Below, piece by piece: positions 45,724 to 58,213 of a stretch of DNA of 64,000 nt. Both the position numbers and the translations under genes were made by a program. Position 1 is the first letter of the stretch; each line of letters opens with the position of its first letter. Below the pieces are notes generated by a model. The model did not search any database. It was not told the DNA's origin and saw only the letters and a list, made by a program, of their open reading frames with translations. The stretch is from Candidatus Saccharimonadales bacterium (GTDB taxonomy: Bacteria > Patescibacteriota > Saccharimonadia > Saccharimonadales > Saccharimonadaceae), in assembly GCA_036382575.1 (NCBI GenBank), contig DASVHL010000033.1:8389-72388 (forward strand). The letters run 5' to 3'.

Positions 45724-45843
45724 AATTACTCTTGCCTGTCGTATCTTCACCCGCCTACACCCTTGTCTACCGTACTGGTCCAATGCTTATATATTGTCTC
45801 AATAATACCATGAGCGAGGGGGCTCAGCCTAGGTTAAGTCATC

Positions 45844-45876
45844 AAAAAACCTCGCTTGATGGCGAGGTTTTTTGTT
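45844..45876 (-). terminator. rho-independent terminator after rplU (bidirectional shape)
   Basis: Stem CCTCGC / GCGAGG extended by A/T runs on both sides. Confidence 0.85.
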
Positions 45877-46185
45877 TTACTTGATTGAAGTGATTTCAAT
45901 CTTGCTGTATTTCTGGCGGTGGCCAGTTTCGGTGTGAACGCGCTTTTTCGCTTTGTAACGAATAACACGAACCTTATCACCCTTTACAAGGTCGTCTACA
46001 ACCTTGGCAACGACTTTGACACCCTTTACAGTTGGCGTGCCGACGGTTGTTTTATCACCATCAATTACCAACAGTGCATCAAGCGTGAGCTCTTTTGTGC
46101 CTTCCTGGAGGAGGTCCACCAGTAGGGTCTCTTTTTCGGCAACAATAAACTGTTTGCCACCGATCTTAACGACTGCTTTTGTCAT
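45877..46185 (-). CDS. rplU: 50S ribosomal protein L21
   Basis: MTKAVVKIGGKQFIVAEKETLLVD...HRQKYSKIEI. ATG at 46185 preceded by AAAGGA. Confidence 0.93.
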   Translation of the reverse strand: MTKAVVKIGGKQFIVAEKETLLVDLLQEGTKELTLDALLVIDGDKTTVGTPTVKGVKVVAKVVDDLVKGDKVRVIRYKAKKRVHTETGHRQKYSKIEITSIK

Positions 46186-54225: not shown

Positions 54226-57084
54226 TTAGGCTTTCTGTAATGACAGCGTCAGCTCCGCACCTTCGACCTTGACCGTTGTAACATAATCATACGTATCGGC
54301 CGTCATAGTATCCGCTAAAGTCTCGGCCGCAATCGTCTCTTTGTGTTCATCAACTGCCTGGTGCAAATCTTTGTCGTCACTAACGAGGCTCAATGCGATA
54401 CGGTCATCAACGTTCAGACCAGCTTGCTTGCGAGCATTCTGGACATGACGAATCACTTCGCGCATCAATCCTTCACGCTTTAGCTCCGGCGTCAGCGTAA
54501 GATCAAGCGCTAATTCTTTGCCGATCTTTACTTCTTTGACATTCAACTCTTCAGTCAAGATATCTTCAAAGTTCACAAACTCGCCTAATTGCGGAATTGT
54601 CACACTCGCTAGTGGCTGACGAACTTTCATACGTTCTTTGGCTCGAATACTGAGCCCAGCATTCACGTATTCACGGACCATTTCCATGTCCTGGACAACT
54701 AATTCATTCACATGCCCAGTTGCCGGCCAATCAAGTAAGTGAACACTCTCGCCACCTGTAAGTTTCTGATACAACTCTTCGGCGAGGAATGGCGTAAATG
54801 GCGCCAAAACGTAGCTTAACTGCACCAATACGTAGTGGAGCGTGCGATAGGCGTTATTCTTATCAGTATCATCACCTGATTTCCAGAAGCGACGGCGGCT
54901 ACGACGTACGTACCAGTTAGAAGCATCTTCGATAAATGGCAAGATTGGCTTAATCGCGTTTGGAATATCGTAAGCATCCATATGCTTTTCAACCTCAGCA
55001 GTTAGTTGATGGACACGGCTGACCACCCATTGATCGAGTGGATTTTCAAGGCTGTCGGTTGGATCTGAAAGATCGCCGTTAAATTCCCAGCCATCAACTT
55101 CGGCATACATCGTAAAGAAATCATACATATTCCAGACCATTGATAGCTTGCGTGCGACATCCCCGACTTCCTTGTCCTGTAGGGCAAAATCCTCGCCGTT
55201 CAGAAGTGGGCTTTGTAGTAGCAGGAAACGAAGACTGTCAGCTGAGTACTGATCCATCAACACATTTGGATCTGTGTAGTTGCCGTAGCTTTTGCTCATT
55301 TTGCGGCCGTCATTACCCGCCACATTGCCCGTTACAATGACGTTCTTGAATGAGTTTTCGCCAAACAAGGCGACGCTCATTGAATGCATGTAGTAAAACC
55401 AAGCGCGGACCTGACCAATGTATTCCACGATGAAATCACCAGGAAAATTTTGTTCGAACTTCTGCTTGTTTTCAAACGGATAATGGAACTGCGCAAATGG
55501 CATACTGCCGGCTTCAAACCAGCTATCCATTACCTTATCGATACGCTCATAGGTGACACCATCGATTTCAAAGGTAATATCATCTACCCACGGACGGTGG
55601 TAATCATCGAGTTCGACACCACTTAGTTCTTTCAGCTCATCGTAACTGCCGACAACCTTCACATGTGTTTCGCCGCTGTTATCAGTACCCTTCCAGACAG
55701 GCATTGCCGTCGCCCAGAAACGGTCACGTGACAAGTTCCAGTCTGGTGCTTGTTCAATCGTTTTAGCAAAGCGACCATTCTTTACATGTGGCGGGAACCA
55801 GTTAACATTGCCATTCTTTTCAAGCATCGTTTCGCGCTGCGTGTCGATATCCATAAACCAACTTGGGTGCGCACGGTACATCAACTTCGTGCCACAACGA
55901 TGACAATGTGGGTAGCTGTGACGGATATAATCGATTTTCCAAACAATACCTTGCTCGTGTAACGTCTTAGCGATTGTTTTATTGATATCCCAGACATTCT
56001 CACCAGTCCAGTCACCTTCAGTGAAATGACCATTCTCGTCGATTGTATGAACAACCGGAATCTTCTTTTTGCGGGCCAGCGCAAAGTCCTCTTCACCATA
56101 AGCGGGTGCGATGTGAACGATACCAGAACCATCCTCGACACTGACATAGTCAGCGTGCCAAATTTGATGCGCATTCTCACCGCGATCAACACCGAGAAGT
56201 GGTTCGTATGATTTACCAACGAGTTCTTTGCCTTTTAGCGTGCGAACAACTTTATAGCTCAATGCCTGATGTTTGTCGTCAGTTAATACTTTTTCTGCTA
56301 GCTCCTTTGCAAGAATCAAACGCTCTCCATCGAGATCAACTTCAACATATTCAACATCCTTGTTTACTGCAATAGCTGTATTTGCCGGTAGTGTCCAGGG
56401 TGTTGTAGTCCAGGCTAGCAAGCTAACGGCTTCACCAACAAGTTTGAATTTTGTATAGACAGACGGGTCAGTGACATCCTGATAGGCACCAGCATCCATT
56501 GTTACCTCGGCTTTTGAAAGTGGCGTCGCATCAAGCGTACAGTACATCAGTACCTTTTCACCTTCGTAAATCTTGCCTTTTTCGTACAAAGTTTTAAACG
56601 CCCACCATACCGATTCCATATATTCTTTATCCATGGTCTTGTAAGCGCCCTTAAAGTCCACCCAGCGGCCAATACGATCAATCGTATCTTCCCATAAGCT
56701 ACTTGTCTGAACCATGTTCTCGCGACAAGCGATAATATATTTCTCAATGCCATAATCTAGCACTTCTTCTCGTGAGTTAATACCAAGCTTCTTCTCGGTA
56801 TAACGCTCAGCGGGAAGTCCATGACAGTCCCAACCCCAAACACGCTCAACATGCTTGCCTTTCATCGTCTGATAACGAGGCACGACGTCTTTAACAATCG
56901 AACTAAGTAGTGTTCCATGGTGAGGCACACCAGAAATAAACGGAGGACCATCATAAAACACATATGAATTATCTTTCGAGCGTTGTTCAATCGATTTTTC
57001 AAATGTTTTGTTCTTCTTCCACTGCTGCACTAAATCTTTTTCGTACTCAAGTGCTCGTCGTCGCGTATTGGCTTTGTACTTCAT
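54226..57084 (-). CDS. ileS: isoleucyl-tRNA synthetase, type 2 (eukaryote/actinobacterial-like)
   Basis: YVFYDGPPFISGVPHHGTLL (type-2 N-terminus), editing CP1, KMSKS. ATG at 57084 preceded by AAAGGA. Confidence 0.95.
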   Translation of the reverse strand: MKYKANTRRRALEYEKDLVQQWKKNKTFEKSIEQRSKDNSYVFYDGPPFISGVPHHGTLLSSIVKDVVPRYQTMKGKHVERVWGWDCHGLPAERYTEKKLGINSREEVLDYGIEKYIIACRENMVQTSSLWEDTIDRIGRWVDFKGAYKTMDKEYMESVWWAFKTLYEKGKIYEGEKVLMYCTLDATPLSKAEVTMDAGAYQDVTDPSVYTKFKLVGEAVSLLAWTTTPWTLPANTAIAVNKDVEYVEVDLDGERLILAKELAEKVLTDDKHQALSYKVVRTLKGKELVGKSYEPLLGVDRGENAHQIWHADYVSVEDGSGIVHIAPAYGEEDFALARKKKIPVVHTIDENGHFTEGDWTGENVWDINKTIAKTLHEQGIVWKIDYIRHSYPHCHRCGTKLMYRAHPSWFMDIDTQRETMLEKNGNVNWFPPHVKNGRFAKTIEQAPDWNLSRDRFWATAMPVWKGTDNSGETHVKVVGSYDELKELSGVELDDYHRPWVDDITFEIDGVTYERIDKVMDSWFEAGSMPFAQFHYPFENKQKFEQNFPGDFIVEYIGQVRAWFYYMHSMSVALFGENSFKNVIVTGNVAGNDGRKMSKSYGNYTDPNVLMDQYSADSLRFLLLQSPLLNGEDFALQDKEVGDVARKLSMVWNMYDFFTMYAEVDGWEFNGDLSDPTDSLENPLDQWVVSRVHQLTAEVEKHMDAYDIPNAIKPILPFIEDASNWYVRRSRRRFWKSGDDTDKNNAYRTLHYVLVQLSYVLAPFTPFLAEELYQKLTGGESVHLLDWPATGHVNELVVQDMEMVREYVNAGLSIRAKERMKVRQPLASVTIPQLGEFVNFEDILTEELNVKEVKIGKELALDLTLTPELKREGLMREVIRHVQNARKQAGLNVDDRIALSLVSDDKDLHQAVDEHKETIAAETLADTMTADTYDYVTTVKVEGAELTLSLQKA

Positions 57085-57300
57085 TTTTATTCCTTTCATA
57101 AAAATAAAAAATCCCTTTTTAGTCACTGGAATCCGCATATGCGGACGGTACCATCCAGTTTCTAAAAAGAGATTCTTCTTAGCGCTTAGTTGTTCGCTTT
57201 AACGCAGCGTGCGCGTTGAGTTCTACTCGGCCAAAGCTTTTCTTCCCAATGACTTCGTGGCTGATAACCACTCATCTACAAACATAGAATGTCTAGGCTT
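57085..57300 (-). promoter_or_regulatory. T-box riboswitch leader of ileS (Ile/AUC specifier)
   Basis: Canonical antiterminator at 57125-57159: A1 ACUGGA/UCCAGU, 7-nt bulge UGGUACC, A2 GUCCGC/GCGGAU. Hairpin at 57257-57271 has the 7-nt loop UUAUCAG (AUC = 57263-57265), flanked by GAUGAG...CGAA. U-tract at 57100-57112. Confidence 0.72.
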
Positions 57301-57301
57301 T

Positions 57302-57329
57302 ATTCTACACGCTTTAGACCGATATTGAA
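57302..57329 (-). promoter_or_regulatory. candidate promoter of the ileS leader
   Basis: Minus strand: TTCAAT (57324-29), N16, TAGAAT (57302-07). Confidence 0.35.
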
Positions 57330-57342
57330 AGATATGAGCCGG

Positions 57343-57963
57343 TTAAGCAAACAGTGCGTCGCCGAATTTCAGTACGACGAGGGCGATCATAGCAACAATC
57401 CAGCTCGCAACAATCAGTTTGTGATAGCCACCTTTAATAAGAGCCTGGGCCTTCTTATTAGCTGACTTCGAAAGACCAAATGTATTTTCGCGAAGATTAT
57501 AGTGCGTTATTGTCGCAAATAGCATCGTGGTCGTAAATGTCACAACCAAACACCACGGACAAAGCACTTCAATTACATAAACGCTATTGAAAAATAGCCA
57601 GTATGCAAACACGAGGCCCAGCAAATAGCCGATATTAGCACCGATATAAAACCAGCGTGGCAACACTGCCTTACTTAAACCAAGTGATGCCACAACGATT
57701 ACCACCGGAAATGCCATCAGGCCAATAAACATATTCGGAAAACCAAAGACACTAGCTTGCCAGGTTTTCATTACCTCAGCACAGTTGAGGACAAGGTTAA
57801 ACGAGCAAGACAGAACTGTATCCGGGTTCTTTAATAGATGAAACTCTTCAACTGCCAGTACAAAGCTTGCGATCAAGCCAACAATACCAAATGCCAACAT
57901 AGTACCAAAAATCCAACGATTTGAACGCTCTTTTTGTTCAGCTTTTGCAAACAGTTTAAACAT
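57343..57963 (-). CDS. vitamin K epoxide reductase (VKOR) family disulfide-bond-forming membrane protein
   Basis: Loop cysteine pair SCSFNLVLNC and active-site CPWC in TM4. Confidence 0.85.
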   Translation of the reverse strand: MFKLFAKAEQKERSNRWIFGTMLAFGIVGLIASFVLAVEEFHLLKNPDTVLSCSFNLVLNCAEVMKTWQASVFGFPNMFIGLMAFPVVIVVASLGLSKAVLPRWFYIGANIGYLLGLVFAYWLFFNSVYVIEVLCPWCLVVTFTTTMLFATITHYNLRENTFGLSKSANKKAQALIKGGYHKLIVASWIVAMIALVVLKFGDALFA

Positions 57964-58213
57964 AGTAGCTTACCTCACTGATGGTTGGTAGCGGACGACC
58001 ACGCCAAAGATTTTGCAGCACAGCATCATCACTTAACGCAACAATGCTTGGATATTCAACAATGTCGTAGGTACGGCAGAAACTCGCACCATCAGGGGTA
58101 TCGGGGTTCATTGTCTCGAGTTCGTGGCCAGTTTGGCGGGCAAAATCACGCAGATAGTCGATCACTTCGCGTGCATGATCACTTTCCTCTTTGTAAATAA
58201 CGATTGCCCTCAT
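57956..58213 (-). CDS. glutaredoxin/NrdH-like fold protein lacking the CxxC active site
   Basis: MRAIVIYKEESDHAREVIDYL...YDIVEYPSIVAL matches the Grx/NrdH beta-alpha-beta and cis-Pro pattern. ESDH occupies the position where CxxC is expected. Overlaps the VKOR gene by 8 nt. Confidence 0.4.
   Translation of the reverse strand: MRAIVIYKEESDHAREVIDYLRDFARQTGHELETMNPDTPDGASFCRTYDIVEYPSIVALSDDAVLQNLWRGRPLPTISEVSYYV

Follow-up and report, generated by a model that had tools for sequence, protein, structure and literature searches.

The ileS leader and its orthologs

The 64-kb window analysed here (the whole stretch of DNA, 64,000 nucleotides) comes from a genome of Candidatus Saccharibacteria in the Candidate Phyla Radiation (CPR), a placement drawn from the relatives of its isoleucyl-tRNA synthetase (IleRS), and our subject is the leader in front of the IleRS gene, ileS. 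Both lie on the minus strand, as do all coordinates below unless marked otherwise, so that the positions of paired strands run downwards from 5′ to 3′. The regulated gene, ileS (54226-57084), encodes a protein of 952 amino acids (aa) that is called by TIGR00392 (819.5 bits against a cutoff of 621.4) and combines the Pfam domains tRNA-synt_1 and Anticodon_1 with a C-terminal DUF5915; it has no zinc-finger C-terminus and scores 660-670 bits against the MupA/MupB models, all of which is consistent with the type-2 assignment offered by the original prediction, a reading of the window made from its letters. The true start is the ATG at 57084-57082, which has a Shine-Dalgarno (SD) sequence in front of it and, in the orthologous loci, coincides with the first residue of the tblastn query. 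Upstream, the gene for a VKOR homologue ends in a stop codon at 57345-57343, leaving the 258-nt intergenic gap that had been reported, and when the minus strand was read across 56900-57500 every motif coordinate previously listed for this gap proved exact. From its motifs and their covariation, the leader (~57290-57100) is almost certainly a T-box riboswitch specific for tRNA-Ile.

An IleRS protein search recovered 80 orthologous loci (70-90% identity), nearly all from Candidatus Saccharibacteria/Saccharimonadales (TM7, Patescibacteria/CPR), among which 69 leaders could be parsed, 66 of them with their specifier hairpin; a model-based alignment held 77 sequences. A covariance model, R1, built from 64 discriminator-terminator segments of these orthologs, matched the window (92.9 bits) and 76 of the 80 ileS loci at E ≤ 1e-5, always on the ileS strand. 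Matches were weaker in L042 and in L023, which is cut by a contig end, and L037 and L071 are without upstream sequence; the element is found in 78/78 loci that have upstream sequence. R1 found no second copy in the window and no convincing copy in ~400 kb of TM7 rRNA-operon contigs. A weak 22-bit R1 match in L127 (10388-10467) falls on a near-perfect hairpin of ~80 nt (−37.5 kcal/mol) shortly after the conserved 5′ end of the 16S rRNA gene, which looks like an rRNA insertion and is unrelated to the T-box.

Searches with Rfam models explain how such an element can go unannotated. At curated thresholds, no Rfam match is called anywhere in the 64-kb window. Under permissive filters, the T-box model RF00230 is the best match on the leader (57124-57253, minus strand) and the sole T-box-like match in the window, with 31.6 bits and an E-value of 2.4e-05 in a 501-nt search, or 0.0031 over the whole window; the Rfam search proposed in the original prediction returns a T-box match, at a score below the gathering score of 93. 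The score falls short because 78 Stem I positions of the model are deleted and Stem II is shortened, and a score below gathering means that standard annotation misses the element. Posterior probabilities in the same alignment are high for the T-box bulge, Stem III and the F-box (CGUUA). The leader fold also beats 200/200 shuffles (z = −3.67), and covariation is present in every helix, including helices A1 and A2 and the AUC hairpin, where it had been named as the thing to look for; RNAalifold recovers the helices unaided.

A specifier hairpin of 15 nucleotides

Structurally, the leader opens with a 5′ hairpin that we term P0 (UCUA-UGUUUG-UAGA, 57275-57288), a lineage-specific element at the base of Stem I that abuts the UGA preceding it. 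P0-like hairpins (at least 4 bp, ending 0-1 nt from the UGA) occur in 45/66 leaders, with a mean ΔG of −3.7 against −2.0 for shuffles, and a subset of leaders carries in place of P0 a short covarying 3-bp closing helix, GAC/GUC or UCC/GGA. The ultrashort Stem I itself (57254-57274) consists of U-GA, the strand GUGG (57271-57268), the loop UUAUCAG (57267-57261), the strand CCAC (57260-57257) and GAA. The specifier codon AUC (57265-57263) occupies loop positions 3-5 and is followed by A57262. A perfect 4-bp Stem I with a 7-nt loop is found in 66/69 leaders, in 11 strand combinations; it is 100% paired, with compensatory changes at 4/4 pairs, and the AUC is invariant in the 66 parsed hairpins, with A as the next base in 63/66. 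Stem I is hence a 15-nt hairpin, and the long Stem I with its distal interdigitated T-loop platform is absent. The earlier reading of an ultrashort Stem I with AUC in its terminal loop is borne out by these counts and fits the published ultrashort class on ileS. That reading had also likened the flanks of the hairpin to a K-turn/GA motif, of which one part holds: GA flanks are common (5′ GA in 41/66 leaders, 3′ GA in 57/66), and the window has the tandem GA/GA flanks (GAUGAG at 57276-57271, CGAA at 57257-57254), but it has no conventional C-stem, and the 5′ hairpin abuts the motif instead.

Stem II (57216-57249) has a lower helix of UUGGG (57249-57245) and CUCAA (57220-57216) that is 95.7% paired, with compensatory changes at 4/4 pairs and 5 pairs predicted by RNAalifold, under a variable distal hairpin. 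Between the two lie the strands of an S-turn (loop E), AAGAA (57244-57240) and AGUAGAA (57227-57221), with GGAAGAA and AGUAGA conserved in alignments A1 and A3 (not to be confused with the helices). Next comes the Stem IIA/B pseudoknot (57195-57215), in which IIA pairs CGC (57215-57213) with GCG (57205-57203) and the IIB loop CGCU (57209-57206) pairs with AGCG (57198-57195). The CG/GC core of IIA never varies, and one IIA pair shows strong covariation; in IIB, 4/4 pairs show compensatory change and 69% are paired, a value limited by the MAFFT register. The F-box-like GCGUUA (57205-57200) includes the CGUUA that Rfam aligns to the F-box.

Discriminator and cognate tRNA

Directly 5′ of Stem III stands the purine string AAGCG (57183-57187; RRRxG, containing the RAG motif), and Stem III follows as CUAAGAA-GAAUCUC-UUUUUAG (57162-57182). 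The AA linker (57160-57161) then leads into the T-box sensor hairpin (57125-57159), in which helix A1 pairs ACUGGA (57159-57154) with UCCAGU (57130-57125), the 7-nt T-box bulge UGGUACC (57153-57147) lies between A1 and A2, and A2 (57146-57131) pairs GUCCGC (57146-57141) with GCGGAU (57136-57131) across the loop AUAU (57140-57137). AAGNG, a closed Stem III hairpin, AA, a 6-bp A1 and UGGNANC are found in 69/69 leaders (the purine string reads GAGAG in L067), and together with the covarying Stem II S-turn and IIA/B they uphold the T-box identity first proposed from the antiterminator-like hairpin of the window. Stem III averages −6.2 kcal/mol over the 69 leaders, is 96.4% paired, with 6/9 pairs compensatory, and is aligned by Rfam with the T-box Stem III; A1 is 100% paired in 12 distinct strand pairs, and A2 is ~99% paired with 4/4 compensatory, against 33-57% pairing in slid controls for the helices of this half. 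The conservation of AUC, UGGN, RAG and AA across lineages whose IleRS are 70-90% identical, with compensatory change in each helix, argues for a working tRNA sensor.

The bulge reads UGGUACC in 55 of the 69 leaders, UGGUAAC in 8, UGGAACC in 4, and UGGUAUC and UGGCACC in 1 each. The variant UGGAACC was noted in L005 (1749-1835), L012, L015, L056 and L061, UGGCACC in L065 and UGGUAUC in L064. Some leaders have large hairpin insertions, either in the Stem III loop (up to ~40 nt; L017, L024, L063, L072) or atop A2 (up to ~45 nt; L069 1068-1197, L077 2147-2246), and these leaders keep the strands of the lower terminator stem described below; translational T-boxes typically carry insertions at these two places (PMC7583486).

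No tRNA genes lie in the 64-kb window or in the 80 ileS loci. Metagenome contigs were therefore scanned for the TM7-905 16S probe target, taken as a mark of TM7-type rRNA operons, and ARAGORN was run on 50 of the loci so obtained. All 40 tRNA-Ile genes found beside 16S genes carry the anticodon GAU in the loop CUGAUAA, and 40/40 end in ACCA, that is, in A73 and an encoded CCA; the TM7-567 probe target is also present in 26/40 of these loci. The predicted AUC:GAU and UGGU:ACCA pairings are confirmed in this way at the level of the lineage, from TM7-type operons rather than from this genome, and so is, at the same level, the earlier expectation that tRNA-Ile(GAU) has A73. The UGGA and UGGC bulges would mismatch A73 of all 40 tRNA-Ile genes, so that either the fourth bulge position tolerates a mismatch or the discriminator base differs in those genomes. 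The order of tRNAs beside 16S in the TM7-type operons varies (Ile-Ala, Ala-Ile, Ala-Val-Ile, Ala-Ile-Val), often with tRNA-Val(UAC) included, the loci concerned including L081, L088, L115, L123, L127, L128, L136, L146 and L158 among others; in some loci the tRNAs are on the strand opposite to the 16S match.

A putative terminator that shares a strand with Stem III

Downstream of the sensor hairpin, CUAAAAAGGGAUUUUUU (57106-57122) pairs with 57178-57162 (GAAGAAUCUCUUUUUAG) and extends helix A1 into one long hairpin, within which CUCUUUUUAG (57171-57162) is complementary to CUAAAAAGGG (57122-57113). The U-tract UUUUUUAUUUUU (57100-57111) stands directly 3′ of the long hairpin and is the presumed termination site; the T columns after the stem are invariant or nearly so in alignment A1, and a U-run follows the stem in all leaders folded. 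For the window, as for nearly all of the orthologs, minimum free-energy folding of the stretch between RRRxG and the U-tract yields a single long hairpin. Read downwards from its tip, this hairpin comprises the intact A2, the bulge, A1, a small internal loop (AA opposite GA) and a lower stem of 10-20 bp; the loop and 3′ strand of Stem III serve as the 5′ strand of the lower stem, and the segment right before the U-run serves as its 3′ strand. Since Stem III and the lower stem use one and the same 3′ strand, they are mutually exclusive. The remark in the original prediction that the helix beside the U-tract extends A1 rather than competing with it was correct and describes the key conserved feature; the expression platform that it left open is, on the comparative evidence, a conserved rewiring in which Stem III sequence would be built into the terminator.

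Covariation in this arrangement is strong. RNAalifold predicts the long hairpin unaided, with 19/21 pairs kept through two-sided changes; for A1 together with the 12 upper pairs of the lower stem, the MAFFT alignment gives 96.2% pairing and 14/18 compensatory pairs, and for the whole structure the model-based alignment (77 sequences) gives 96.9% and 18/22. None of 500 shuffles reaches these pairing values, and slid controls are 37-55% paired. Thermodynamically, the lower-stem duplex averages −16.4 kcal/mol against −4.4 for a shuffled partner, and the two conformers average −35.2 kcal/mol for the terminator and −21.9 kcal/mol for Stem III with A1/A2. The pairing of the Stem III loop and 3′ strand with the segment before the U-tract is the sole conserved alternative pairing in the leader, and it stacks under an intact A1/A2. 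The 5′ strand of Stem III mimics the terminator 3′ strand, with a mean of 4.8/7 positions identical.

The SD sequence AAAGGA (57096-57091) and the ileS ATG (together 57082-57096) are not part of the switch. On average the SD is unpaired with a probability of 0.53, and no conserved SD complement was found in the leader when duplex energies were compared with shuffles. In at least 17 loci, moreover, an unrelated open reading frame (ORF) lies between the U-tract and ileS, its stop usually overlapping the ileS start, with the platform unchanged, and in 6 further loci the element lies 650-1150 nt upstream of ileS. With a hairpin and U-tract at its end and this indifference to the downstream ribosome-binding site (RBS), the leader is best read as a transcription attenuator, and it is likely to act on transcription.

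The intervening genes are of several kinds. At 6 loci the gene encodes a GNAT acetyltransferase of ~185 aa whose stop overlaps the ileS start (L002 135-683; L003 1951-2511; L014 1935-2501; L015 1956-2504; L045 1960-2511; L053 1935-2498). Lying between the T-box terminator and ileS, the GNAT gene is predicted to be co-regulated by tRNA-Ile charging; a link between GNAT and IleRS recurs, given that the NCBIfam model NF040702 describes an IleRS fused to a GNAT domain. Other intervening proteins are cupin-like (2 loci), a GDSL/SGNH hydrolase, a methyladenine glycosylase (Tag, 245 bits) and family-less acidic proteins of 57-90 aa; the loci that carry these other genes are L024 (2010-2498), L028 (2151-2504), L055 (1899-2504) and L059 (1911-2504), together with L008, L020, L026, L031, L056 and L058, where the ORFs are small. 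The slot between T-box and ileS seems to be a hotspot for gene insertion.

Mechanistic model and competing explanations

Taken as a whole, the leader probably is a T-box for tRNA-Ile(GAU) that attenuates transcription through a rewired Stem III switch. The structures, their covariation and their complementarity to tRNA are observed directly, and from them we infer the order of events, the Stem III lock and termination in the following model. The nascent leader would capture the tRNA-Ile anticodon. If the tRNA is uncharged, its ACCA end would pair with UGGU, docked Stem III would resist invasion by the downstream strand, the terminator base could not form, and RNA polymerase would read into ileS. 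With charged tRNA or none, Stem III would be undocked and weak (~−6 kcal/mol), and the downstream strand would displace its 5′ strand, starting at the A1-proximal end, until the long hairpin (~−35 kcal/mol) zips to the U-tract and transcription stops. On the sharing of strands described above, there is a reasonable likelihood that Stem III, and not helix A1/A2, is the antiterminator. Published results on Stem III make it a plausible switching element: it is indispensable for binding the tRNA 3′ end (PMC7583486); a longer Stem III gives ~6-fold tighter tRNA binding (bioRxiv 10.1101/2023.02.28.530422); and for the ileS T-box of M. tuberculosis it was found that Stem III stays docked with uncharged tRNA, whereas with a charged-tRNA mimic the linker becomes flexible and Stem III leaves the sensor helix before the switch to OFF (PMC12647780).

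Two other platforms would leave Stem III out of the switch and draw on the 3′ strands of A2/A1 instead. Were the leader a translational ultrashort T-box as in Actinobacteria, the sensor 3′ strand would pair with the SD region without uncharged tRNA and the U-tract would be incidental, and it is true that the published ultrashort class is described as translational (PMC7583486; bioRxiv 10.1101/2023.02.28.530422) and that AUUCC (57132-57128) of the window is complementary to the GGAAU of its SD region. Such a sequestrator is nonetheless very improbable: over 51 leaders, the most stable duplex that the 3′ strands of A2/A1 can form with the SD region has a mean energy of −4.5 kcal/mol (only 6% are better than −8), compared with −4.0 for shuffled partners, the unpaired probability of the SD averages 0.53, the U-tract is conserved, and the platform is the same where another gene and its RBS come after it. 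The rule stated for described transcriptional T-boxes (PMC7583486), that the A1/A2 3′ strand becomes the terminator 5′ strand, could be followed in the window by a weak 7-bp candidate, GGAUUCC (57134-57128) with GGGAUUU (57115-57109), which the original prediction had offered as the only exclusive alternative, and the best such duplex there reaches −6.5 kcal/mol. Across orthologs, however, this pairing is at chance level: the corresponding duplex with the pre-U strand averages −4.3 against −3.7 kcal/mol for a shuffled partner in 69 leaders, 0 are better than −8, examples such as L057 (+0.1 kcal/mol) and L009 (−2.7) show that it is unconserved, and the covarying lower stem takes up the whole of the downstream strand. 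The canonical platform thus has hardly any probability left, and the comparative sequence data already contradict it.

The remaining alternatives accept the long hairpin and differ over what it does. It could be that tRNA controls termination without any exchange of Stem III, the tRNA 3′ end in the bulge bending or stiffening A1/A2 or hindering the polymerase-proximal hairpin so that the lower stem cannot stack or complete, with Stem III only a part of the tRNA-binding pocket. The presence of the bulge and A1/A2 in both conformers would suit this account, as would the pairing of the terminator base with the Stem III loop, which is unpaired within Stem III, and L042, which seems to manage without a Stem III hairpin; we nevertheless regard it as unlikely, for in 69/69 leaders one strand is common to Stem III and the lower stem, and both helices covary, so that a tRNA-competent discriminator necessarily removes 7-9 terminator pairs, and the mimicry by the Stem III 5′ strand (4.8/7) is the pattern expected of competing strands. 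It is also conceivable, if quite improbable, that the long hairpin is no regulated terminator and serves instead as an RNA stability or processing element (e.g., a double-strand nuclease site) or as a constitutive attenuator, the T-box part being a relic or acting on RNA decay. Termination is here a reading of the structure, intrinsic terminators seldom have a stem so long and irregular, the hairpin goes uncalled in the consensus scan, and RNase III reportedly cleaves a T-box leader in S. aureus (PMC7913692); against this stand the conserved AUC, UGGN, RAG and AA, with compensatory change in every helix, and the U-run that always comes directly after the stem.

Several observations weigh against the attenuator with a Stem III switch and should be set beside the evidence for it. 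By Rfam's own criterion, the leader is not a member of RF00230, its 31.6 bits being far below the gathering score of 93. We infer alike that tRNA binds, that transcription ends at the U-tract and in which direction the gene is regulated. A simple terminator scan of 20 kb of the genome found 17 sites where 18 were expected, hence no enrichment, and did not call the leader hairpin; the consensus scan is uninformative here. The terminator base (GGGAUU with the AAUCUC of the Stem III loop) is not sequestered by Stem III pairing; an intact Stem III leaves the loop free, which would in principle allow the two to form a pseudoknot, so that the block to termination may be incomplete or need a tertiary fold. 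Transcriptional T-boxes are said to need, in general, a long Stem I for fast tRNA capture (PMC7583486), and this leader is without one. The G·U pair at the base of A2, which senses the aminoacyl group sterically, occurs in the window (G57146·U57131) but only in 41 of 76 leaders, with A-U in 13, U-A in 12 and G-C in 7. In L042 (2398-2484) the specifier hairpin, Stem II, pseudoknot, bulge and U-tract are present and the Stem III hairpin is apparently absent (AAGUCCC-AA-GCAGGA; 27 bits with R1), which makes this locus either an exception to the Stem III switch or a decayed copy. Finally, much of the covariation separates two main clades, and independent events are fewer than the cell counts suggest; despite this, 59 distinct lower-stem strand pairs exist.

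With these points counted, we consider it somewhat probable that the switching role has passed to another helix in a T-box lineage of Saccharibacteria, A1/bulge/A2 being constitutive at the tip of the terminator and Stem III, long taken for a variable accessory, being the antiterminator.

Relation to described T-boxes

The T-box discriminator has been defined as 5′-RRRxG-Stem III-AA-3′ followed by A1, a 7-nt bulge and A2 (PMC7583486), with stress laid on the RAG motif (PMC11297988). In the ultrashort class, the specifier stands in a terminal loop, and all members are on ileS and translational (bioRxiv 10.1101/2023.02.28.530422); in Actinobacteria, the ileS aptamer is 87-99 nt long and holds a IIA/B pseudoknot besides Stem I and an S-turn-bearing Stem II (PMC10651847), and ultrashort ileS T-boxes are attributed to M. 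smegmatis, M. tuberculosis and N. farcinica (Sherwood, Grundy and Henkin 2015, as cited in PMC7583486 and bioRxiv 10.1101/2023.02.28.530422). The Saccharibacterial leader resembles this class in its very short Stem I, which presents AUC at its terminal loop and has no tRNA-elbow platform, in its Stem II S-turn, IIA/B and Stem III with RAG/purine flanks, in the series A1, UGGN bulge and A2, and in its gene (ileS), ligand (tRNA-Ile) and decoding domain of ~80-100 nt. Unlike the actinobacterial class, where a sequestrator that competes with the sensor helix governs translation, it has no conserved SD pairing and ends in a hairpin and U-tract, and its competing helix is Stem III. The actinobacterial Stem I has a K-turn (PMC10651847), whereas the window has a separate 5′ hairpin abutting a GA/GA motif. 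The lineages differ as well (Saccharibacteria of the CPR and Actinobacteria), and the leaders of the two were compared through published descriptions.

With canonical transcriptional T-boxes of Firmicutes (B. subtilis glyQS and tyrS; RF00230), the leader shares the terminator-like hairpin with U-tract, the specifier codon and the UGGN bulge, and in both the terminator conformer is the more stable (−35 against −22 kcal/mol here; −19.5 against −7.4 in TBDB). In canonical members, the 3′ strands of A1/A2 become the terminator 5′ strand (PMC7583486 and a second review), whereas here A1/A2 stay intact and the Stem III loop and 3′ strand supply it. The canonical long Stem I with a distal T-loop platform is likewise missing here, as the 78 deleted Rfam positions show, and it is also absent from the accepted ultrashort class. 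As in intrinsic terminators, a stable hairpin precedes a U-run, and the first U's pair, in the manner of bidirectional terminators, with an A-rich 5′ flank (GAAGAA); unlike intrinsic terminators, the hairpin has a stem of ~35 bp with a 7-nt bulge, a 2x2 internal loop and a ligand-binding tip, and the consensus scan made no call.

To judge by these comparisons, the element looks like a combination of an ultrashort Stem I with an apparently transcriptional output, and we found no earlier description of the Stem III rewiring.

Features around the leader

The genes around the leader are arranged in the order ftsZ - nrdR - ORF85 - VKOR - T-box - ileS, and the 85-aa ORF between nrdR and the VKOR gene (57956-58213, minus strand) has no NCBIfam or Pfam match. 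A possible −10 box, TAGAAT (57302-57307), was read from the sequence together with TTTCAA (57330-57325) at a 17-nt spacing, and the transcript might, on this weak basis, start near 57295-57292, just before the first hairpin. Many orthologs have TAnAAT-like boxes about as far upstream of the leader; the consensus scan did not report the TAGAAT box at 57302-57307. A mechanical list of ORFs starts ileS at an ATG at 57138 (54226-57138, minus strand; 970 aa), inside the A2 loop (AUAUG), and automatic annotation could accordingly place the ileS start wrongly, within the leader. Elsewhere in the window, a textbook bidirectional intrinsic terminator at 45843-45874 (plus strand) and 45846-45906 (minus strand) consists of CAAAAAACCUCGC-loop-GCGAGGUUUUUUG followed by UUUU; the site has a sub-threshold Rfam match to the isrJ small RNA (32.4 bits against 37), most likely due only to the hairpin.

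Implications

The CPR makes up a very large share of bacterial diversity that is still poorly understood, and to our knowledge almost no gene regulators are known in it; the leader described here places a working-looking T-box there. For Saccharibacteria, TM7 or Patescibacteria, no publication on T-box riboswitches came up in a search whose coverage was incomplete, so that an earlier description may exist, and TBDB sought translational Ile T-boxes only within Actinobacteria. There is a gap in annotation too, as the leaders score one third of the Rfam threshold, and alignments A2-A4 could seed a model for them.

For the T-box family, two generalisations do not hold for these leaders: that the terminator arises from the A1/A2 3′ strands, and that an ultrashort Stem I goes with translational control and a long Stem I with transcriptional control. 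If the model is true, it would be a natural demonstration of Stem III docking as the primary readout of tRNA aminoacylation, and thus a natural system for the proposal from single-molecule work that charged tRNA causes Stem III to undock (PMC12647780). It would also mean that an ultrashort Stem I without contact to the tRNA elbow is fast enough for a co-transcriptional decision, contradicting the generalisation that transcriptional T-boxes need a long Stem I. The modular design, in which the ligand-binding hairpin is kept in both states, may be of interest to RNA engineers. Cultivated Saccharibacteria grow on Actinobacteria, and the occurrence of a rare ultrashort ileS T-box together with a type-2-like IleRS in both Saccharibacteria and their actinobacterial hosts raises the question of gene transfer between them.

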